64,000 nucleotides of DNA, from positions 32,001-96,000 of the IMG/VR virus record IMGVR_UViG_3300044835_000075; one strand, written 5' to 3'. A program made the position numbers and the translations under genes. Numbering within the stretch: position 1 is the first letter of the stretch; every line of letters begins with the position of its first letter. Shown here piece after piece: positions 31,846 to 55,934 of this stretch. This DNA is from a virus. The notes under the pieces are model-generated. The model did no database searches, was not told the DNA's origin, and saw only the letters and a list, made by a program, of their open reading frames with translations.

Positions 31846-31876
31846 AACGCCCCCGCCGGATACCGGCGGGGGCGTT
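31846..31876. terminator. bidirectional terminator (shared stem family)
   Basis: AACGCCCCCGCCGG-ATA-CCGGCGGGGGCGTT. Confidence 0.7.
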
Positions 31877-31887
31877 CGACGTACGAA

Positions 31888-32036
31888 GGCCCGGAGTCTC
31901 CCCCGGGCCCGCGCTGCTCTACCAATTGAGCTACACGACCGGCTGCCGCTGGCCGCGCCCGGACTTGAACCAGGAACCACCGGCGACACTACCGGACGCG
32001 CGAAACCCGGGGCCGCCGTGGCGGGCACCCGGGCTC
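31888..32036 (-). ncRNA. circularly permuted tRNA-like RNA (YrlA/Y-RNA-like)
   Basis: T arm CCTGG-TTCAAGT-CCGGG precedes acceptor stem closed by a loop, then D arm GCTC-AATTGGTA-GAGC; no anticodon loop. Confidence 0.7.
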
Positions 32037-32118
32037 ACTTCCGCCCACGCGGGCGGCGGTCAGGTCACAGGCAGAGGAAACCGAACAGGTGGATCACCAG
32101 AAGAATCATGCCCGAAGA

Positions 32119-32379
32119 CTAGACCCCGGTGATCAATCCGGCGCGCCGGGCGTCCTGCCTCGGCGGCGTATTCGGTGACGGGCAATCCGGCGCGTGCCGG
32201 ACGACGGCCTTCAGCGTCGACAGCGGGGTGAGGTAGCGCCGCTGGTCGCCGTAGGCGGTGAACAGCTGGCCCTCGCAGTACAGGCAGAGCACAGAGCCAC
32301 CGGCCAGCGTGACACCCCAGCGCCAGACGAACGCCGGGATGTCCTCGAAGTCGGGGATGTCCGGCGGGAGCACGGTCAC
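32119..32379 (-). CDS. hypothetical protein
   Basis: GTGA overlap; CLYC...H..C. Confidence 0.5.
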   Translation of the reverse strand: MTVLPPDIPDFEDIPAFVWRWGVTLAGGSVLCLYCEGQLFTAYGDQRRYLTPLSTLKAVVRHAPDCPSPNTPPRQDARRAGLITGV

Positions 32380-32636
32380 CGCTTCGCCCTGATCGGCTTG
32401 CCGGTCTCCAGGTCGAGCCCGTAGGTGTTCAGGTCCCGCTCGATGTCCCAGGCCTCCGAGCCCCGGTCGAGCGCGATGTCGTCGTTGCCAGCGGCCACGG
32501 CGGCTGCCTCCTGGTCGAGCAGCTGCTTGCGGTAGGCGGCCATCGCGATGCCCTGCTTGCACGTCGGGCCCTCGATCTCGATCTTCTGCCGGACCCAGAT
32601 GGGTGCGGCGCCGATGAGGATCTCCAGCTTAGCCAC
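32376..32636 (-). CDS. hypothetical protein
   Basis: AGGAGG RBS. Confidence 0.6.
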   Translation of the reverse strand: MAKLEILIGAAPIWVRQKIEIEGPTCKQGIAMAAYRKQLLDQEAAAVAAGNDDIALDRGSEAWDIERDLNTYGLDLETGKPIRAKR

Positions 32637-33312
32637 GGGTACCGGCCTCCTTCTCGCGTGCGTCGGCCCGGCAGATCCGGCTGTCGAGCGCGTCGCGCCG
32701 CTTGCACAGCGCCACGAACTTGATCAGGTCGTTGTCCATCTTGGCGAACCGGCGGCGCCCGGCGCTGGCGGCGGCCTTCGAGCGCGAGTACGGCGAGAGG
32801 TTCACGACGGCGGGGTCGTACGGGCCGACGTCGGCGAACGCGTCGAGCTTGGCCTGCACTGTGGCGCGCTCTTCGCGCAGCGAGTCGGCCGAGCGGTAGA
32901 CACGCGGTGTGGTGACCCGCTTCGGGGCGGGCGTGGTCTCAGGGAGCACGACGTACTGCTCGTCGCCGTCGCGGACGAACCAGTCCAGCAGGGGCGGGAA
33001 GCGCAGCGTGATGCGGTCGGCCTGGTGGCGGGCGACGTAGGCGGCCTGGCGGGCCAGCAGGATCTCCATGTACTCCTCGCCGGTGACCGGGGCGGTCAGC
33101 TCGGCGGGCTCGTCAGCCACGGCCACGGGGGCGGGCTCGACGTCGTGCATCTCGGTGATCTCTTTGCGGACGCCGAGGATCTTGCCGGGCTTGTCCCAGC
33201 CGCCGACGCCGGTGATGACCTCGACCTCGTAGTAGCCCGAGTTGATCTCGCGGAGCACCTTGACTTCGGCGGTGAGTGTGCGTCCACAGGTGACGGTGGC
33301 GGTTCCCAGCAT
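32629..33312 (-). CDS. hypothetical protein
   Basis: GAGGAG RBS downstream of promoter. Confidence 0.7.
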   Translation of the reverse strand: MLGTATVTCGRTLTAEVKVLREINSGYYEVEVITGVGGWDKPGKILGVRKEITEMHDVEPAPVAVADEPAELTAPVTGEEYMEILLARQAAYVARHQADRITLRFPPLLDWFVRDGDEQYVVLPETTPAPKRVTTPRVYRSADSLREERATVQAKLDAFADVGPYDPAVVNLSPYSRSKAAASAGRRRFAKMDNDLIKFVALCKRRDALDSRICRADAREKEAGTRG

Positions 33313-33352
33313 GGCGGGTTCTCCTCGGGGGTCTCTCGTGCGGTACCCCTGA

Positions 33353-33382
33353 ATGATAGCCGACGCTTGAGCGGCTTGTCAA
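33353..33382 (-). promoter_or_regulatory. Repeated promoter, class II
   Basis: TTGACA-AGCC-N11-GGC-TATCAT; GTACCG at +36. Confidence 0.8.
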
Positions 33383-33443
33383 CCTCAGGTTACCAGAAAA
33401 GCCCCGCCAGGAATCTGCCCGGCAGGGCTTCAGGGGTTGCGAA

Positions 33444-33788
33444 TCAGAGGACGACGACGCGACCCTCGCGCAAGACGCAGGCGCCGACCAGCGGCGGCAA
33501 AGCGGGGAAACCGTAACGCCCGGCAGCCTCATCGAGGTCGTCCTGATCGACGTTGCCCTTGCGGGTGAGACGCATCAGGGGAAGCCGGTCGGCGTCGATG
33601 GTCATCTGCACGGTACGCAAACCGAAATCGCTGCGAAAGACGCGGATGACGCTGACACTGTCAGCAGTGTGGGCGTAGACGTTGCCGGGCGCGATGCCGT
33701 CAACGACCCAGCAGAAGGATTCGCCTTCGATACGGACGGTGTCGCCAAGGGCGATGTCGGCGCGGCGGGCGGTGGCGGTGTGAACCAT
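33444..33788 (-). CDS. hypothetical protein (paralog of 13644-13994)
   Basis: GGGAG RBS; DIALGDTV...WVVD...RKGN...GFPAL; atypical codon usage. Confidence 0.7.
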   Translation of the reverse strand: MVHTATARRADIALGDTVRIEGESFCWVVDGIAPGNVYAHTADSVSVIRVFRSDFGLRTVQMTIDADRLPLMRLTRKGNVDQDDLDEAAGRYGFPALPPLVGACVLREGRVVVL

Positions 33789-33823
33789 GCGGGGCTCCCT
33801 GGTCTCTCGTGCGGTACCCCTGA

Positions 33824-33853
33824 ATGATAGCCGACGCTTAAGCGGCTTGTCAA
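33824..33853 (-). promoter_or_regulatory. Repeated promoter, class II
   Basis: TTGACA-AGCC-N11-GGC-TATCAT; GTACCG at +36. Confidence 0.8.
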
Positions 33854-34001
33854 CCTCGAAGTAGATGCGGGGGCCGTATCCCTCGGCCGCGTCGAGATCT
33901 GGCACCAAGAGCGCCGCCACGCGGATCACTGCTGCTGGCCTCTCAACGCCCCATCACCGCTCACGCGGTCGCGTCCCGGGGTGAACGCAGGGCATCCGCC
34001 G

Positions 34002-34073
34002 TGGTCCCGGGAGGACTTGAACCTCCAGCCGTCATCGTATGAAGACGCTGCTCTACCACTGAGCTACGGGACC
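34002..34073 (-). tRNA. tRNA with CAT anticodon (Met or Ile2), no encoded CCA
   Basis: GGTCCCG/CGGGACC acceptor, GCTC-AGTGGTA-GAGC D arm, loop TTCATAC, GGAGG-TTCAAGT-CCTCC T arm. Confidence 0.85.
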
Positions 34074-34185
34074 AAAACGAGACCCAAGCGGGCCCTGTAG
34101 GGCGTCACCACCGCTCCGTCACCGGAGACAGGCAGCGCTGGGATAGTGTCGACGGCGAATTCCACACCGCTCCCGCCTGGATCTC

Positions 34186-34252
34186 GTGACAGCGAAGGAC
34201 TCGAACCTTCCCCCGGAACAGGTACGCCGGGGCCCGACCTTGGGAACTGCCT
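34186..34252 (-). ncRNA. degenerate tRNA-like element
   Basis: AGGCAGT/GCTGTCA acceptor, small D-like hairpin, CCCCGG/CCGGGG stem with 10-nt loop, GAAGG-TTCGAGT-CCTTC T arm. Confidence 0.55.
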
Positions 34253-34689
34253 CGGCACCGGCGCATCCACGCCAGTGCCCCCGGCCAGCCGCTCCAACAG
34301 CCAACCGAGTCGAACGCGGCACGACGGGCGAATCGTCACACCCCGACCCGGGCGCAGGAACACCCGAACCGGTCCAGCCGCGACGCACGCCCCTGCGGCA
34401 AGCACAGCGCGCGCCCCGACCGCCGCTGCAATTCGACGGCCGGTGTTACTTCGGTGGTCCCGCCCGCATCCACAACGAGACGGCCACTCACGAGATCACT
34501 CCCGCATCAACGAAACTGCCCTGCCCAAACCAGGCCAGTCCGCGAAGCTTCACGGTCCCCCGCGCCCGGACAGTGCCGGACGCGGGGAGTACCGCCCTGC
34601 GCCACCCCGGCAAGGGCAACGCACATCACAGCACCCGGGATTGCCGCCCCGTGCCACGGTCGCGGGTTTAGCGGCCCGCGCCGTGTCTG

Positions 34690-34813
34690 TTGTCCACCCC
34701 CGGATCGAACGGGGGCACACGGCCTCTCGGCTACCCACGGGGTGGAAAGACTCCGCGCGGTGCGGCCAGGTTCTACCCTGCCGCCGTGGCTCTACCAGCT
34801 GAGCTAGTGGACT
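34690..34813 (-). ncRNA. tRNA-like element with 59-nt insertion in place of the anticodon loop
   Basis: AGTCCAC/GTGGACA acceptor, TA-GCTC-AGCTGGTA-GAGC D arm, ACGGC/GCCGT stem, CCCCG-TTCGATC-CGGGG T arm. Confidence 0.7.
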
Positions 34814-34894
34814 ACCAGCGGACCCATCCGCCATTAGGGCCCCGCCTCGCCCGCCCAGTAGGTGCGCACCGGTCGAACGGGTTCAGCGAGAAGA

Positions 34895-35110
34895 TCAGTT
34901 GTCGATGCGCTCGTGCGAACCGTCGAGGCTGCGCGGCGCAGAGCCGACTCCCCCGCGCTTCGCCGCGAGCACCTCTTTCGCGGTGAAAAACGAGAACATG
35001 AGCGCAGCCACCAGCAGCAGCGACAGCCACGGATTGACGCCGAGCGTGATGAAGACGGCGATGAGGCCCAGCGTGACGCTGTACTGGATGAGAGAGCGAA
35101 CGTCGTTCAT
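34895..35110 (-). CDS. small membrane protein inside ncRNA cluster
   Basis: GAGAGGA RBS; MNDVRSLIQY..., two TM helices. Confidence 0.6.
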   Translation of the reverse strand: MNDVRSLIQYSVTLGLIAVFITLGVNPWLSLLLVAALMFSFFTAKEVLAAKRGGVGSAPRSLDGSHERIDN

Positions 35111-35294
35111 GCGGTTCCTCTCGAAGAGCTTTGGGTGGCCGTTGTTGCGTTGGTATCGAGCCTGCCGAAGCCGGTACAGCGGCCAAAACCGCGACAGGTA
35201 GAGCGTGCGCTTCACTCGGCTTGGCACACGCTGGGGCTTACTCCCGCCACCGTCCTCGTGAGAGTCCGGCTCGGCTTGACCGAGAGCCCCTTCC

Positions 35295-35353
35295 GTGCAC
35301 CGGCCCGGCTCGAACGGGCTGCCCATCCCTGCTGAGTAGCGCGGGGCAGTGCT
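35295..35353 (-). ncRNA. truncated tRNA-like element (acceptor plus T arm)
   Basis: AGCACTG/CGGTGCA acceptor, GCCCG-TTCGAGC-CGGGC T arm, only 27 nt between. Confidence 0.55.
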
Positions 35354-35563
35354 CCGACGGGTGTGTTTCGCCGTGAAGTTCCCACCGTCATGAACTCGCT
35401 GCGCACCGCTGCGTCCCGAACCCAACCTCGCACTGTGTGGAGCGTACGCGGCTCGCCGGGGCACAACGGGTGTTGCAGTCTCACGGGTGCCGGTCGTGGC
35501 ACACCCTGACCTTGTGTCGGAACCGGTGAGGCCTGGGGGACCCTCTCCGGCCCGACACCGCAG

Positions 35564-35593
35564 ACACTAGCCGGTGTCGTGGCGGGAAGTCAA
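35564..35593 (-). promoter_or_regulatory. Class II-like promoter heading the ncRNA/tRNA cluster
   Basis: TTGACT-N15-GGC-TAGTGT; left AGCC half-site absent. Confidence 0.65.
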
Positions 35594-35599
35594 CTCGGG

Positions 35600-36385
35600 G
35601 TATTGCGTGGTAGTCGCATGTAACTCTGAGTAACCCTCCTTTAATTATTACCATAATCAAGTCTCATCGGGGTAACGGTTTGGAGTACCTAGATTTGTGC
35701 AAGTTTGCAGCAGGTTAGCGCTTACTTTGCGCCGTGTTTGCGTGCGCTATGCCAGTGCTAGGCAGGCTCTGTATACCCCCGGGGGGTATCCGTGGCCAGC
35801 GTGGTCCAAATGCTAACTACCTGCTCTAAGATGCTAATCACCAGGTAGATGGCAATGCAAACCTCTAGTGGTCAAGCGGCAATAGACCACCCTATATGCC
35901 TTCTGACCTGGTGGTTACGGGTCATCAACCCCCTTTGGTCCGGGACGAGGTGCCTGTTTTCGGTTGTAAATTGCTATGCTAACCATGCTAAGTAGCTATT
36001 ATTTGCCCTGACCTGCGATGTTAGCGTTTTGCAAACTTAGCATTGCCTAAAGGGGTCGAAATCTGAGTCGTCGGACCATGGACCAACATCTCTTAAAGGG
36101 CAGGTCGGGAGGCACTTCCGTCGATCGGCCCGACTTGACCTCTTTGTCCGATTCTCGCGAGTGGACCGGCGTGGACCGCGTTGCCCTCGTCGCCGTCCTC
36201 GCTGGTCACGGCATTTCGCTATGGCAAAGCAATTGCAAGTCCAGGGGTGGACCGAAACAGCGCCAAAGTGGACGAGTGTTGGTGACCAAACGGACCATGT
36301 TAATTTCTAACATCACGGATATCGTGACCTTATCCATTGTAGACAGTCGAATTTGACGCCATGCGATTGCTATGCAAAGCTTCGC
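35600..36385. other. AT-rich non-coding region with short repeats, candidate replication origin
   Basis: Clearly lower GC; many TGCTA/TGCAA copies in both orientations; transcription diverges around it. Confidence 0.5.
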
Positions 36386-36388
36386 TGC

Positions 36389-37057
36389 ATGACTCGACCT
36401 GACTACGCCTCCCTCGGCTTCACCGTCTCGGCCCCCGAGGCCCGCGAGATCCTTGAGGTCGGCTCCGTGAACGAGGTGTACGACCTCGTGCGGACCGGCG
36501 TCCTCGACGGCCTCCACACCTTCCGCGAGGGCCGCGCCTTCATGCTCTTCCACCCCGATGAACTGACCGGCTACGCGTACCGGGTTCGCACCGGCAAGTT
36601 GCAGGCCGCCGAGCGTTACGCCACCCGTCTTCAGCGCATCCTGCGCGACTACCTGCGCTCGCACACCCCGCTCCCGGACTACGACGAGGCCTGCGACACC
36701 GGCTACCCGCTGCTCGCCGGGACTTCCGCATCCGAAGGGGACGCCGTCTACATCCGTCCCGAGTTCGTCGTCGAGTGGTTCCGGCACACCGACGACGGCT
36801 TCGAGCATCCGATCACCAAGACCACGCTCGACGAGACCCTGCACCGCATCGGCGCGATCCGGCGTCGCGGGTTCGTCGCGGTCTCCGACCGCAGCAAGGG
36901 CACACAGCGCTGGTCGCAGTGGTGGCGGCTGCCCGCGTCGTTCGTCGACGGTGCGATCCCCGACCCCGCGCCCGCGCCACTGCGCACCGACGACAAGGTC
37001 GTCCGTGGGGTCCGTGGCCCGGCGTACCTCTCCGGCGAACTGGGGTCGCAGTCGTGA
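36389..37057 (+). CDS. HTH (excisionase-like) DNA-binding protein, candidate initiator/regulator
   Basis: SAPEAREIL.V...VYDLVRTG.L HTH; leaderless ATG 36 nt after TTGACG. Confidence 0.6.
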   Translation: MTRPDYASLGFTVSAPEAREILEVGSVNEVYDLVRTGVLDGLHTFREGRAFMLFHPDELTGYAYRVRTGKLQAAERYATRLQRILRDYLRSHTPLPDYDEACDTGYPLLAGTSASEGDAVYIRPEFVVEWFRHTDDGFEHPITKTTLDETLHRIGAIRRRGFVAVSDRSKGTQRWSQWWRLPASFVDGAIPDPAPAPLRTDDKVVRGVRGPAYLSGELGSQS

Positions 37058-38157: not shown

Positions 38158-39756
38158 ATGCCTGCCATGCGAGACATCACGTTGAAAGTGGAAGAGCCCA
38201 TCGGCGCCACGGTCGTCCACCGGGACGCGCCGGACCTGGACATGACTCGCGACTCGGGGCAGCGTGCCGCCGACCACCGCGAGTGGCTGGTCGCCGAGTT
38301 GCCGTCGGCGATCGACCAGCTCTACGAAAAGATCGGCATGACTCCCCGGCCGGGCGACCTCGATGCCGTCATCCGCTCCCTGCCGCCCGGCGGTATCCCG
38401 TGGACCCCTGCGGCGATCGTGAGCGCGGTGAAGGACGCGCTGGCCGCCGCCGACACGGTCCGCCAGCTCGCCGACCTCCTCGGGGGCGGCCGGTCGTCGG
38501 CGAGGCGCGCCAACGTCCCGTCCGGTCTGCTGGCCCTGCACTCCATGCTGCCCGGCGAGGTCAAGGCGAAGCTCGACCTGCTGGGTCGGCAGAACGGCGA
38601 GATCGCGAAGCTCGCCCGCGTCGCCCAGGTCGCGAACGACCTCATCCCGGCGACGATGGGGAACGCGGACGGTGACATCGTGTCCGTCGACATCCCGCTC
38701 GCCGAGCTGCCGACGCTGCTGCGCGAGTTCGTCAACGCGGTGACTGTCGAGGACGACGAGCGGGGCCGCATCATCGACGGCGTCAAGGCCGCGTTGGGGT
38801 TGCGGGTCTCCGACCGCGACGACCTCGCCGACGACCTGGTGCCCGCGCTGGTCCGGTCCCGGCTGGAGGGCGACGACTCCACCGAGCAGCTGTTCGGCCG
38901 GACACTGACCGATGTGCTGATCAGCTTCGGCCTCAACCCGCTGATGGACGAGGAGTCGGTCGTCGACGCTCTGCGGGAGAAGGCGGCCCACGACACGGAC
39001 GCGGCGGTGAAGGCGGCGCTGGCGGAGTTCGGCCGCCGGATCATGATCGTGGCCGGGGCGGAGGAGGACATCGACTTCCCGACGTCGGAGGTGGAGATGT
39101 CGGCGTTCATCGCGCAGGCCGTAAAGCCCCCTGTGTGCTCCGCTCACGGCACCATGGCGTGTGCCTGGTGCTCGCAGACCATCCCCGGCGGTCTGGACGA
39201 CGACGGGGGCTGCACGGACTGCGGGACGTTCGGGGCGTACGGGATGCACTGGGACACCTGCCGCAACCGGATGCGCTCGGCCCCGCACTACGACATCGAC
39301 GAGGTCACGGCGCTGCGCAAGTTCGCCGCCGACACCGTGCTCCGGCTGGACGGGGACGCGGAGACCGACGACTTGCGGCACGGTCGGCTCTCCGGTGAGC
39401 AGGTGATGGCGCTGCTCTCGGATGCCGATGTCGCGGTGAGGGACACTGTGACGCGCCACCAGCGGGTGCTGGGCCACCTCGACGCGGTGCGCCGGGTGAT
39501 CGAGGATCCCGACGTCGCCGACGAGCATGTCGCGGATTCGGTGAAGCACCGGCTGGAGCAGGCCCGGCGCGATTCGCGCCCGGGTGAGGCGTTCCTGCGC
39601 GGCGAGGACGGCAAGACGGTGAAGTTCACCATGCCGTTCGTCTCCGACGAGGACGCCCGGAGGATCGCCGAGCAGTTCGCGTCGAGCATGGCGAAGGTCG
39701 ACGAGCATATCGCGTCGGTGCTGCGCTCCGTGTCGAAGCCGAAGGACGGCGAGTGA
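38158..39756 (+). CDS. hypothetical protein
   Basis: GAGGA RBS; helical with central Cys cluster. Confidence 0.65.
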   Translation: MPAMRDITLKVEEPIGATVVHRDAPDLDMTRDSGQRAADHREWLVAELPSAIDQLYEKIGMTPRPGDLDAVIRSLPPGGIPWTPAAIVSAVKDALAAADTVRQLADLLGGGRSSARRANVPSGLLALHSMLPGEVKAKLDLLGRQNGEIAKLARVAQVANDLIPATMGNADGDIVSVDIPLAELPTLLREFVNAVTVEDDERGRIIDGVKAALGLRVSDRDDLADDLVPALVRSRLEGDDSTEQLFGRTLTDVLISFGLNPLMDEESVVDALREKAAHDTDAAVKAALAEFGRRIMIVAGAEEDIDFPTSEVEMSAFIAQAVKPPVCSAHGTMACAWCSQTIPGGLDDDGGCTDCGTFGAYGMHWDTCRNRMRSAPHYDIDEVTALRKFAADTVLRLDGDAETDDLRHGRLSGEQVMALLSDADVAVRDTVTRHQRVLGHLDAVRRVIEDPDVADEHVADSVKHRLEQARRDSRPGEAFLRGEDGKTVKFTMPFVSDEDARRIAEQFASSMAKVDEHIASVLRSVSKPKDGE

Positions 39757-44249: not shown

Positions 44250-44455
44250 GCTGGTGGAACCTGGCCGGGATCCTCGCGGTCACCCTGTACCTGTGGGCCG
44301 GGTTCTGCCTGGCGTTGGAGGTGGACAAGGAGATCACCGCGTCGTTTCCGGTGCCGGAGGCGCTTCGGCGGGGGCTGGCGGTGCTGATGCTCGTGGGCTG
44401 GCTTCCGGTACTGATAGCGGGTGCCCTGACGGGGAAGAGCGGTGAAGGCAAGTGA
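44246..44455 (+). CDS. small membrane protein
   Basis: Two TM helices; GTGA overlap. Confidence 0.55.
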   Translation: MSWWNLAGILAVTLYLWAGFCLALEVDKEITASFPVPEALRRGLAVLMLVGWLPVLIAGALTGKSGEGK

Positions 44456-44772
44456 GCAGGAAACGGAGACGGCGGCCTATGGGCAGACACAGGGGACGCG
44501 ATGAGGTCGGTGAATCACCGGATCCAGCAGGTGGACCGGGAGCTGCTGAGATTCGTTGGCCTGGGGACGGACCCGCAGGGGAGGGACCCGGCGAACCGGT
44601 TGCTCGACGAGCGGTTGATCTTGATGGACGAGCGGGACCGAGGGTTCCGTCTCACCGATCGCCGGAGGGTCACGCCGACCACTTGACGTTGCCGCCCGTC
44701 GACAGTCTGGAGCTGCCGACACCGATTTTCGACGAGATGATGAAGGGATCCGCGTGGCAGACAGCGAGCTGA
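44452..44772 (+). CDS. hypothetical protein
   Basis: GTGA overlap; low complexity. Confidence 0.35.
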   Translation: MSRKRRRRPMGRHRGRDEVGESPDPAGGPGAAEIRWPGDGPAGEGPGEPVARRAVDLDGRAGPRVPSHRSPEGHADHLTLPPVDSLELPTPIFDEMMKGSAWQTAS

Positions 44773-45071
44773 CCGAGGACCAGCGGCTACTGAAGGCCGC
44801 GTTGCTGGCCCTCAAGGACGTGCACACGGCGTGGGCGGTCGCGGTGGACGCGGTAGATGCGGTCACGGCGTCGGAGTGGGTCGAGGATGCCGACGCCGAG
44901 GAGATGGACAACCAGGTCGACGAGGTCGCCGCCGGGCTGGGCAGGGTGCTGGGGGGTCTGGCGGTCATCGCTGGCCGGTTGGCGCTGTCCGAACTGGTGG
45001 CGGCGGAGATCGCGGAGGTCGAGGCGGTGTCGGGTCCGCCGGACATCCGCGACAAGCTGGCCCGGGATTAA
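44754..45071 (+). CDS. hypothetical protein
   Basis: AAGGGA RBS; acidic helical. Confidence 0.55.
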   Translation: MADSELTEDQRLLKAALLALKDVHTAWAVAVDAVDAVTASEWVEDADAEEMDNQVDEVAAGLGRVLGGLAVIAGRLALSELVAAEIAEVEAVSGPPDIRDKLARD

Positions 45072-45079
45072 TCCAATAA

Positions 45080-45109
45080 TTGACTAGCCGCTCTCCTCTC
45101 GGCTAAGGT
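45080..45109 (+). promoter_or_regulatory. Repeated promoter, class II
   Basis: TTGACT-AGCC-N11-GGC-TAAGGT; GTTCCG at +37. Confidence 0.8.
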
Positions 45110-45147
45110 GCTCAGTGTTCCGCACCGCCGAGAGGAGAGCGTTTTTC

Positions 45148-45447
45148 ATGGCAAAGAAGTCCGCACCGGGGTCACGCACCCCGAAACTCGCCAGCCCCCG
45201 AGGCCCCGGCGCCAATCAGTTCGAGCCCACCGGGCCCATCGACTACATCGTCGAACTGCACCCCGATACCCCCGGCATCCCCCCCCACTTCGAACGCGTC
45301 GGCGCCAGCTCCCCCGCCGAGGCCTACTCGAAGGTAGCCCGCACGCTCACCGACGCCTGGCTCATCTACCGCCTCTACGTCGCCGTCGAACCCGTCGCCT
45401 GGCAGCCACTCGACGACGCCACCGGGTCGCCGCTGAAGGGCAGGTGA
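45148..45447 (+). CDS. hypothetical protein
   Basis: GAGGAG RBS. Confidence 0.65.
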   Translation: MAKKSAPGSRTPKLASPRGPGANQFEPTGPIDYIVELHPDTPGIPPHFERVGASSPAEAYSKVARTLTDAWLIYRLYVAVEPVAWQPLDDATGSPLKGR

Positions 45448-45450
45448 GAC

Positions 45451-46083
45451 GTGGCCAACGACAAACCCGGCCGCCCCGTCGACAAAGGCCCCTGCACCGC
45501 GCAGAAGCACAACCCGACGCCCCACGGCTACCGCCGGGGCTGCCGCTGCCCCGAGGCCCGCGCCGCGTGGACCGCCTACCAGTCCGACTACCAGGCCCGA
45601 CGCCGCACCGGTGAAGCCCGCCCCCGCACATTCAACCCCGAGACCCAGCTGATCAGGCAACGCGAGAAGCAACTACGAGAGGAGGCCGAGAAGATGCGCA
45701 AGTTCAAGCTCGCCCAGGACATCGCCGACCGCAACCACGCCCTCGCCGTCTGCGCCCAGCGCCGCCTGCGCGCCCTCATGCGCATCGGCTACACCCAAGC
45801 CAACCTCACCACCCTCACCGGCCTGGGCGCCACCACCATCATCAGCATCACCGGAAACAAGCCGGGAAGCATCCGGCCCGCCACCGCCGAACTGGTCAAA
45901 GCCGTCTACGACACCTGCCAGTTCATCCAAGGCCCCAGCAAAATCGCCGCGATGTACGCCCACGGGCGCGGCTACCTCCCCCCGGCCGCCTGGGATCCGC
46001 ACGACCTCGACGACCCCGACGCCGAACCCACCTGGCCCCGCCGCAAGCCCGCTGCCCAGCAGCTCAGGAGTTGCCCGTCATGA
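45451..46083 (+). CDS. actinophage DNA-binding protein (GCRC motif plus HTH)
   Basis: HGYRRGCRCPEA; RRLRALMRIGY...PPAAWD..LDDPDA.P. Confidence 0.7.
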   Translation: MANDKPGRPVDKGPCTAQKHNPTPHGYRRGCRCPEARAAWTAYQSDYQARRRTGEARPRTFNPETQLIRQREKQLREEAEKMRKFKLAQDIADRNHALAVCAQRRLRALMRIGYTQANLTTLTGLGATTIISITGNKPGSIRPATAELVKAVYDTCQFIQGPSKIAAMYAHGRGYLPPAAWDPHDLDDPDAEPTWPRRKPAAQQLRSCPS

Positions 46084-46337
46084 CCGACCCCGCCGCTGCC
46101 CTCGCCGCGATCATGGCCCGCCTCAACCGCTACATCGGCCAGCCGTGCACCGTGCCCACCCGCAAGGGGGGCCGCGTCACCGGCACCCTGTCCGGCTACG
46201 AACTGCGCGAGATCGACGGGTCGGTGTGGGTCACCTTCCGCGAACACGGCCGCCCCGTCGAAGCCACCGGCTACCCCGAGTCGGCGAAAACTCTCCCTTC
46301 TCAGCCTGCCCAGATCGAAGAGAAAGGCCAGCAGTGA
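46080..46337 (+). CDS. hypothetical protein
   Basis: AGGAG RBS; ATGA overlap. Confidence 0.6.
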   Translation: MTDPAAALAAIMARLNRYIGQPCTVPTRKGGRVTGTLSGYELREIDGSVWVTFREHGRPVEATGYPESAKTLPSQPAQIEEKGQQ

Positions 46338-55280: not shown

Positions 55281-55934
55281 ATGACGAGCAACATCGTCAA
55301 ATCCGCCAACGAGAAGATGGACCAGGCCCTGCGCCTGCTCGGCGAAGCGCAGGCCGCGATGCAGCTGGCCAACCGCTTCGGCGCCGAGCCCGAACCCGGC
55401 ACCGTCCTCGTGTTCGACAAGATCTTCCCCAACGAGGGTGCCGCACTGGACTCGCTCGGCCTGAACTTCGATCCCGAGAAGCTGGTGCCCGGCAACAAGT
55501 CCGCGCTGTTCGACGTGCTCAGCGGAGCGAGGCTCGGCGGCCGCGCGCAGTACGGCGGCGTGGTCGTCATCGACGACGACGACGCGTTCGCCAAGGCGAT
55601 GCAGAAGTCCTACCGCCACGTCGCCATCCGCATCGGCAACGTCTGGTACACCACGTCGCCCCGCATCTCCAAGGTGTCGTGGGACAAGCTCGCCGAGTTC
55701 ATCGGCGACTCGCAATGCTGGAAGGTCACCGGCACCGAGGAGATCCCCCTCGAAGCCCCCCAGGTCATCGAGCAGGCTTCCGAGCCCGCCGACGCACCCA
55801 ATGCCGCTGACGCGATCAAGGACAACCGCAAGGCGCTCATGGGCGCCCTGGCCCGCGCCCGCGCCAACGGCAAGAGCCCGACGCCGAAGGAAATCCTGGA
55901 GATCGTCACGAAGACGCTGGACTCCGACAAGTGA
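55281..55934 (+). CDS. hypothetical protein
   Basis: GAAGGA RBS; EP..GTV..F.K...Y..VAIR...WYTT...SW..L pattern. Confidence 0.65.
   Translation: MTSNIVKSANEKMDQALRLLGEAQAAMQLANRFGAEPEPGTVLVFDKIFPNEGAALDSLGLNFDPEKLVPGNKSALFDVLSGARLGGRAQYGGVVVIDDDDAFAKAMQKSYRHVAIRIGNVWYTTSPRISKVSWDKLAEFIGDSQCWKVTGTEEIPLEAPQVIEQASEPADAPNAADAIKDNRKALMGALARARANGKSPTPKEILEIVTKTLDSDK

Follow-up and report, generated by a model that had tools for sequence, protein, structure and literature searches.

Probable non-decoding tRNA mimics with a shared A/A end in a phage genome

The stretch of DNA analyzed here (hereafter the window) comprises 64,000 nucleotides (nt), bases 32001-96000 of the 107,374-bp IMG/VR virus record IMGVR_UViG_3300044835_000075 (67.7% G+C; 96% complete by CheckV). 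On its minus strand it carries three small tRNA-like elements, designated cand1, cand2, and cand3, in each of which a stem resembling that of a tRNA acceptor, with an A facing an A at its end, is joined to a perfect T arm. Judging from their sequences, none of the three would be able to decode, as no usable anticodon arm is present. The elements are probable selected non-decoding tRNA mimics. A fuller account, in which the A/A pair is a designed end feature and the elements would be processed from one unit into trans-acting RNAs, is in our judgement slightly more probable than improbable.

Mimicry is favored because the T arms are clustered beyond chance, the stems are intact, and an A.A above six pairs arises at few random sites (P 0.0094 per site); because cand2 retains canonical U8, A9, D arm, and T arm, the mini-cloverleaf of cand3 is its minimum free energy (MFE) structure, and the region is mostly non-coding; and because a YrlA-type tRNA mimic lies 2 kb away and relatives of the phage carry other anticodon-less mimics.

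Anatomy of the three elements

The elements, and the genuine tRNA with which they are co-linear, are as follows (coordinates are those of the window).

35353..35296, minus strand: cand1, 58 nt; acceptor strands AGCACTG/CGGTGCA; T arm GCCCG-TTCGAGC-CGGGC; next base C (35295)
34813..34691, minus strand: cand2, 123 nt; acceptor strands AGTCCAC/GTGGACA; T arm CCCCG-TTCGATC-CGGGG; A72 at 34691, A73 at 34690
34252..34187, minus strand: cand3, 66 nt; acceptor strands AGGCAGT/GCTGTCA; T arm GAAGG-TTCGAGT-CCTTC; next base C (34186)
34001..34073, minus strand: bona fide tRNA-Met(CAT); Rfam 62 bits, ARAGORN 115; G1-C72, A73, no encoded CCA

The acceptor strings quoted in an earlier, sequence-only description of the locus (the initial annotation) were all recovered on the minus strand as given, and the shared end that it reported is likewise present: in each element the bases at 2-7 are paired with those at 71-66, leaving A opposite A at 1:72. 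G-U wobbles account for three of the 18 acceptor pairs, one in cand1 and two in cand3 (G3.U70 and U7.G66). A T stem of five Watson-Crick pairs with a TTCGA-type 7-nt loop abuts the acceptor stem in each case, again as had been described. Measured against a canonical tRNA, the three elements thus possess the T arm (5-bp stem, TTCRANN loop, abutting a 7-nt acceptor 3' strand); none has a paired 1:72 position (A faces A), and none has a 5-bp anticodon stem with a 7-nt loop carrying U33 and a purine at 37.

The strong divergence of the D and anticodon arms noted previously is evident. Cand1 is an acceptor/T-arm minihelix with an irregular middle hairpin and no D arm. Cand2, the sole full tRNA scaffold of the three, has the 7-nt strand, U8 and A9, a D arm (GCTC-AGCTGGTA-GAGC), and the T arm, with a 5-bp stem (CACGG/CCGTG) and an insert of about 59 nt where the anticodon loop should be. 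Cand3 is a mini-cloverleaf in which a 3-bp hairpin with the loop AAGGTC and a 6-bp hairpin with a 10-nt loop precede the T arm; this tRNA-like fold is the MFE structure both with and without flanking sequence. The GG-containing D-type loops of cand2 and cand3 could allow elbow formation. The proposal that all three are non-translating elbow mimics is thus supported in part: tRNA derivation and the missing anticodon arm apply to all three, the GG loop to cand2 and cand3.

The 3' trailers read CGG, ACA, and CGA for cand1, cand2, and cand3, respectively, and no CCA is encoded. The initial annotation had also pointed to this absence; it is real but does not set the elements apart, since the genuine tRNA-Met (34073..34001) is followed by A-CGG and not by CCA. 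In this phage's system, CCA would therefore be added post-transcriptionally in any case.

In the scoring check proposed earlier, neither ARAGORN nor Rfam at default settings called cand1, cand2, or cand3; ARAGORN at default found tRNA-Met only, and the tRNA model RF00005 (gathering threshold 29 bits) matched none of the three even at E<=10. Cand2 reached an ARAGORN score of 111.5 only when an insert was allowed, and cand3 gave weak Rfam matches to tRNA-Sec (20.8 bits) and mascRNA (20.0 bits). Phage non-decoding tRNA mimics can be viewed as a loose class, and the features of tRNA-like ends without a decoding arm and of co-linearity with a real tRNA were both seen here.

Clustering and intactness of the elements

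A strict T-arm motif, consisting of five paired positions and a TTCRANN loop, was searched for on both strands of the 107-kb genome and compared with dinucleotide-preserving simulations. Seven motifs were found, against 2.15 +/- 1.5 in the simulated sequences. Five of these seven fall on the minus strand within 31958-35319 (3.4 kb), and the four whose stems consist entirely of Watson-Crick pairs (five each) are all located at 34010-35319. The acceptor stem alone is weak evidence, because a complementary 7-mer with at least six of seven positions matching occurs within the 91 upstream positions at 66% of random sites, and each T arm at the locus has three to five such partners. The combination of A.A at 1:72 with six pairs is far rarer, being found at 0.94% of random sites. 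As the 5' strand of cand2 is fixed independently by the downstream U8, A9, and D arm, recurrence of the A.A in cand1 and cand3 amounts to a ~1e-4 event. The three elements are real and not chance matches.

Another conceivable origin is from integration, with tRNA fragments having been left behind by attP sites or integrative elements, and partial tRNA genes are indeed common in prokaryotic genomes. This origin and chance resemblance are together scarcely tenable. The phage encodes neither a tyrosine nor a serine integrase (PF00589, PF00239), both acceptor strands are present in the elements, and a search with cand2, the only element searched in this way, found nothing in four actinobacterial genomes beyond generic D-arm matches; moreover, an analogous array in an Amycolatopsis prophage (described below) is internal to the early region of that prophage. 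The clustering statistics dispose of chance, so that both ideas are effectively excluded. Two narrower derivations were also considered and rejected. An origin of cand2 from host tRNA-His was dropped, as the shared part is the generic D arm only. Cand1 and cand3 as tRNA-shaped mini-introns within a split tRNA do not fit either, as the sequences on either side fold into hairpins of their own and there is no second T arm downstream.

Host and related phages

The protein encoded at 32629-33312 (minus strand), beside the RNA locus, served as an anchor for comparison with other genomes. Its 60 homologues come from soil metagenome phages and from prophages of Amycolatopsis, Actinokineospora, Glycomyces, and others, and one is present in the cultured Saccharomonospora phage PIS 136. 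Because the anchor homologues occur in such prophages and in PIS 136, the host of this soil phage is most likely a Pseudonocardiaceae-type actinobacterium; the phage relatives infect or reside in members of this family (Saccharomonospora, Amycolatopsis). The anchor protein itself was modeled with a predicted local distance difference test (pLDDT) score of 82.5, and a Foldseek search of this model against the PDB returned nothing at E<=0.001.

The exact DNA pattern of cand2 was not found elsewhere in IMG/VR, and single-protein anchoring with 32629-33312, with 38158-39756, or with a 71-aa open reading frame (ORF) of the locus yielded no usable orthologous locus. An alignment of the anchor homologues led to 6 viral, 10 metagenome, and 8 genome loci, and relatives of the phage proved to carry analogues only. 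In PIS 136 (JX006077.1 32795-32872, minus strand; L165), an unannotated 78-nt anticodon-less mimic precedes the anchor homologue by 110 nt. All seven pairs of its acceptor stem are formed, G1-C72 among them, and A and CG come next. This mimic sits within the annotated coding sequence (CDS) PIS_035, the 5' part of which is for that reason probably over-called.

A related 84-kb phage contig (G002) encodes a 119-nt tRNA scaffold at 55510-55628 on the minus strand (L026:15510-15628) with G1-C72, A73, and an encoded ACCA (Rfam tRNA, 39.5 bits), in which about 70 nt, including a 12-bp hairpin, separate the D and T arms. The same contig encodes a Ro60 orthologue of 537 aa (PF05731, 59.6 bits) at 44420-46228 on the plus strand (L026:4420-6228), and directly upstream of this gene is a permuted tRNA-like RNA whose flanks are able to form a long handle. 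By sequence, this arrangement is a classic rsr-YrlA module residing in a phage relative.

A third analogue was found in a prophage of Amycolatopsis antarctica AU-G6 (G003; L004:2750-3400 = L033:5750-6400) as a tandem array of four to five units of ~115 nt. Each unit combines a T arm with a 5-bp acceptor-like helix, and these helices covary (GGGAG:CTCCC, GCGGT:ACCGC, GGGTG:CACCC, GGGCG:CGCCC). The array lies in the early region of the prophage, after genes for an exonuclease and a PD-(D/E)XK nuclease. Between its units run GGCNN repeats, giving a 5-nt period, and the arrangement may be a protein-binding or small-RNA array.

Scaffolds resembling cand2 are also found further afield. At least 119 phage stretches in IMG/VR (L044-L162) contain a tRNA D arm and T arm 60-90 nt apart; among the matches listed, 64 are distinct insert-bearing scaffolds with the same D-arm consensus and a good acceptor stem, which is paired at seven of seven positions in 59. 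Judging from these sequences, insert-bearing tRNA scaffolds are widespread in uncultured, mostly low-GC phages.

Meaning of the A/A end

The A/A end can be read in two ways. In the first, the mature RNAs would have ordinary ends: the 3' A would be the discriminator base (A73) on a 6-bp stem starting with G, the 5' A would be the -1 base of the leader, and no mismatch would exist in the mature RNA. In the second, the mature RNAs would start at the leading A, and their unpaired end would repel elongation factor Tu (EF-Tu) and peptidyl-tRNA hydrolase or mark the molecules as non-translational. We lean toward ordinary ends, which we place slightly ahead and regard as having a chance not far short of even, and we hold the deliberate 1:72 mismatch to be rather unlikely. 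The ordinary-ends reading competes with the claim of a 1:72 mismatch and not with mimicry as such.

Several regularities point to ordinary ends. The order stem-A-CG follows the 7-nt strands of tRNA-Met, of tRNA-Glu in the relative G001, and of the PIS 136 mimic, in all of which the A occupies position 73, and it recurs after the 6-nt strands of cand1 and cand3 and after the 5-bp helices of the Amycolatopsis array. In four units of that array, the A-CG is invariant while the base facing the A varies (A, G, C, C). In addition, the first base after the leading A is G in all three elements, as in most tRNAs. Set against this is the spacing of cand2, which has exactly 7 nt before U8-A9 and thereby places one A at position 1, the facing A at 72, and a second A at 73. 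Three 5' A's would also be expected with a probability of only ~0.005 were that base free, and position -1 in this phage group's 7-bp elements is occupied by T, C, and C, not by A.

The canonical spacing of cand2 speaks equally for a deliberate mismatch, as does the recurrence of the same A.A in three elements with differing stems. Nor is such an end a generic trait of inserted scaffolds, as a lone 1:72 mismatch was seen in only two of the 64 listed, both T.T, and A.A in none. A precedent exists as well, given that C1xA72 in bacterial initiator tRNA is known to block EF-Tu and peptidyl-tRNA hydrolase. Nonetheless, the PIS 136 and G002 analogues have G1-C72, and only one of four units of the Amycolatopsis array has A.A. 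Furthermore, positions -1 and 73 can pair in all three elements (G-C, U-A, G-C), and the A.A of the precursor would therefore be an internal 1x1 loop and not a terminal mismatch. Aminoacylation of the elements is hypothetical only, and an anti-determinant is redundant for RNAs that lack an anticodon and do not decode. The suggestion in the initial annotation that the mismatch acts as an anti-determinant for EF-Tu and peptidyl-tRNA hydrolase consequently found no support, the analogues in relatives having either a paired 1:72 or a variable facing base.

Organization of the locus and a YrlA-like neighbor

Genes are directed leftward up to ~33,900 and rightward from 36,353, with an AT-richer divergent region between them. 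The RNA unit occupies about 1.6 kb, from ~35560 leftward to 34000, and is mostly non-coding according to codon-position G+C bias. Its order is leader, cand1, the 71-aa ORF, cand2, a 440-nt hairpin-rich spacer, cand3, and tRNA-Met. Further features of the locus are the following.

35564..35593, minus strand: promoter-like TTGACT-18-TAGTGT, recognized by eye; candidate start of the unit, lying ~200 nt upstream of cand1
34895..35110, minus strand: 71-aa ORF with two hydrophobic segments; the sole stretch with codon-position GC bias within the unit
31912..31982, minus strand: YrlA-type circularly permuted tRNA mimic (T arm, closed acceptor hairpin, D arm); RF02553, 32.4 bits

The 71-aa ORF matched no Pfam or PHROG family and has no relatives in IMG/VR. 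Inspection of the sequence revealed no -10-like hexamer at the proper distance from the leading A's of cand1, cand2, or cand3. A terminator-like hairpin with a T-run (34080-34095, minus strand) extends as far as the opening bases of tRNA-Met and might either divide the mimic transcript from the tRNA or belong to the tRNA leader. After tRNA-Met come two near-identical strong promoters (TTGACA-18-TATCAT at 33353-33382 and 33824-33853, minus strand, 471 bp apart), which bracket a 161-aa ORF (33444-33929). A homologue of this ORF lies on the opposite side of the anchor gene in contig L008; thus, the cassette has moved. About 40 phage proteins were scanned against Pfam and PHROG, which identified only NUDIX, SNF2 helicase, UvrD helicase, terminase, exonuclease, phosphoesterase, and tail proteins.

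On the same strand as the cluster, 2 kb farther downstream, is the YrlA-like element. Its RF02553 match (E 4.7e-5 in a local search) is below the gathering threshold of 69, with a wider span of 31873-32071. Since the phage has no TROVE/Ro60 gene of its own, this RNA may work with the host Rsr. RF02553 had no match in 33000-36500 at E<=10, and the arms of cand1, cand2, and cand3 are in normal tRNA order. The Ro60-binding motif GNCGAAN0-1G, for which the chance frequency is 1.35 per kb, is absent from minus-strand positions 33270-34958, within which cand2 and cand3 lie; next to cand1, the closest match, GGCGAAAC, is one base off. In Phytomonospora sp. (L040:1400-1640), a host-type YrlA is encoded upstream of rsr (Ro60), and ARAGORN miscalls its 5' part as tRNA-Asn(ATT). 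On its acceptor/D side, this YrlA hardly differs from the 5' part of the phage tRNA-Met and shares 92% identity with the corresponding part of cand2.

Proposed maturation and competing explanations

The elements retain the module that is read by the tRNA end-processing machinery, namely a coaxial acceptor/T-arm helix with a consensus T loop. In the favored explanation, the ~35560-34000 unit would be transcribed as one precursor from the upstream promoter-like site, and host RNase P and RNase Z would cut at the mimics as at tRNA-Met. A CCA-adding enzyme would then tail the products, by analogy with the YrlA of Mycobacterium smegmatis, for which RNase P cleavage and CCA tailing have been demonstrated (Chen et al. 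2014, PMC4201824). The resulting stable small tRNA mimics would act in trans, as Y-RNA-like adaptors or as competitors for tRNA-binding factors; the same cuts may also punctuate the transcript, releasing an mRNA for the 71-aa ORF and the structured spacers.

A number of observations weigh against this explanation. The tRNA-like fold of cand1 lies 4.2 kcal/mol over its MFE, and a rival outer pairing (35405/35406..35294) would give a 110-113-nt scaffold with a paired U1-A72 and a D-arm-like hairpin, which ARAGORN scores at 88.9 at a lowered threshold; cand1 is the least secure of the three elements. Folding z-scores are unremarkable (-0.7, -1.8, and -0.9 for cand1, cand2, and cand3, compared with -3.7 for tRNA-Met). 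No orthologue of the cluster was found, the RNA sequence being alignable in none of the loci compared through the anchor homologues, hence no covariation supports it. Neither the closest complete relative (G001, 101.7 kb) nor contig L008 has any such cluster, which is therefore dispensable. Among possible RNA-handling partners, no gene for TROVE, RtcB, or a CCA-adding enzyme was found in the phage. Finally, the promoter-like site at 35564..35593 is a by-eye reading that a consensus promoter scan did not return.

Some of the same facts would suit a locus in decay, that is, a former small tRNA array of which three members have been disabled by deletions or insertions. The elements adjoin a functional tRNA, no such cluster occurs in the closest relatives, the tRNA content differs in every relative, and the folding z-scores are weak; two TTCGAC motifs at 34314 and 34877, each with a stem of just 2 bp, may be relics of greater age. 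However, all 33 acceptor and T-stem pairs (18 acceptor, 15 T-stem) are intact and the T loops are consensus, while the D and anticodon regions have been rearranged beyond recognition. The A/A flanks would have to arise three times (P ~1e-6 from the per-site figure), and related phages have mimics without anticodons of their own, one array of which shows covariation. We accordingly consider decay unlikely, in line with the initial annotation, which had thought random decay improbable on the basis of the repeated mismatch; clustering and intact stems argue against both chance and plain decay.

A variant of selected mimicry casts the elements as decoys or competitive inhibitors: CCA-tailed minihelices whose A.A end would bar translation while enzymes acting on the acceptor end could still bind. 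We regard this variant as quite improbable. Possible targets within it are host defense toxins directed at the acceptor end, which are common in actinobacteria, such as MenT/AbiEii-type nucleotidyltransferases, toxSAS/CapRel-type pyrophosphokinases, and tRNA acetyltransferases; alternatively, host Ro60 (Rsr) might be hijacked jointly with the YrlA-like RNA. Cand3, with G2-C71 and G3.U70, might be alanylated in the manner of a tmRNA-type minihelix.

Comparison with known systems and significance

The nearest counterparts of the elements are the YrlA/Y RNAs (RF02553, PMC4201824), which are likewise non-decoding mimics with a T arm, D arm, and acceptor-like stem and occur in actinobacteria and phages. 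Unlike these, cand1, cand2, and cand3 are not circularly permuted, have no Ro-binding handle, do not match RF02553, and belong to a phage that lacks TROVE. Polycistrons of irregular tRNAs, some of which are charged yet unused in translation, were described from soil metatranscriptomes (Mukai et al. 2017, PMC5389517). The resemblance lies in co-linear sets of aberrant tRNA-like sequences from soil; those tRNAs, however, keep their anticodon arms, have 7/5 or 8/4 acceptor/T geometry, are linked to toxin-antitoxin systems, and come from acidobacterial contigs. No shared 1:72 mismatch is described in that study, from the text of which the word "mismatch" is absent (PMC5389517).

The mascRNA/MEN-beta family (RF01684) and the tRNA-like domain of transfer-messenger RNA (tmRNA) also pair an acceptor/T minihelix with reduced or missing D and anticodon arms, and theirs are processed by RNase P/Z and CCA-tailed. 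Cand3 further shares with tmRNA the G3.U70 wobble in canonical numbering. Its match to RF01684, an otherwise eukaryotic family, is nevertheless only 20.0 bits (E 1.1) against a gathering threshold of 42.5, and cand1 and cand2 had no match to this model. ARAGORN detected no tmRNA, and evidence of a tag frame or pseudoknot was absent. With bacterial initiator tRNA (C1xA72), the elements have in common an unpaired 1:72 above G2-C71, and cand1 also C3-G70; they differ in having A.A rather than C.A and in lacking both the CAU anticodon and the anticodon stem with three G-C pairs. The phage's own CAU tRNA has G1-C72.

Phage T4 species 1 and 2 RNAs (rnaC, rnaD) and the stable RNAs of T5 are matured together with the tRNAs of their cluster. 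Compared by description, these too are small RNAs of unassigned function within or beside a phage tRNA cluster, although their hosts are enterobacterial; to our knowledge, neither has been described as having a minihelix architecture with A/A ends. The three elements lack tested defining features of tRNA, YrlA, initiator tRNA, and mascRNA. What is new at this locus is their minimal size, the A/A end design, and the co-occurrence with a YrlA-like RNA.

The usual explanations for phage tRNA genes are codon usage and the replacement of tRNAs cut by host defenses. Elements that keep only the processing/elbow half of a tRNA would serve neither purpose, and would thus point to a second use of the tRNA shape by phages. 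To such mimics the locus would add minimal forms of 58-66 nt, in which the D arm is absent or reduced to 3 bp, and it would tie them to Y-RNA/Ro60 biology inside one phage lineage. The cultured relative PIS 136 offers a mimic that can be tested at the bench. Should the A/A end prove to be a true 1:72 mismatch, it would represent a simple natural device for hiding a tRNA-like RNA from EF-Tu.

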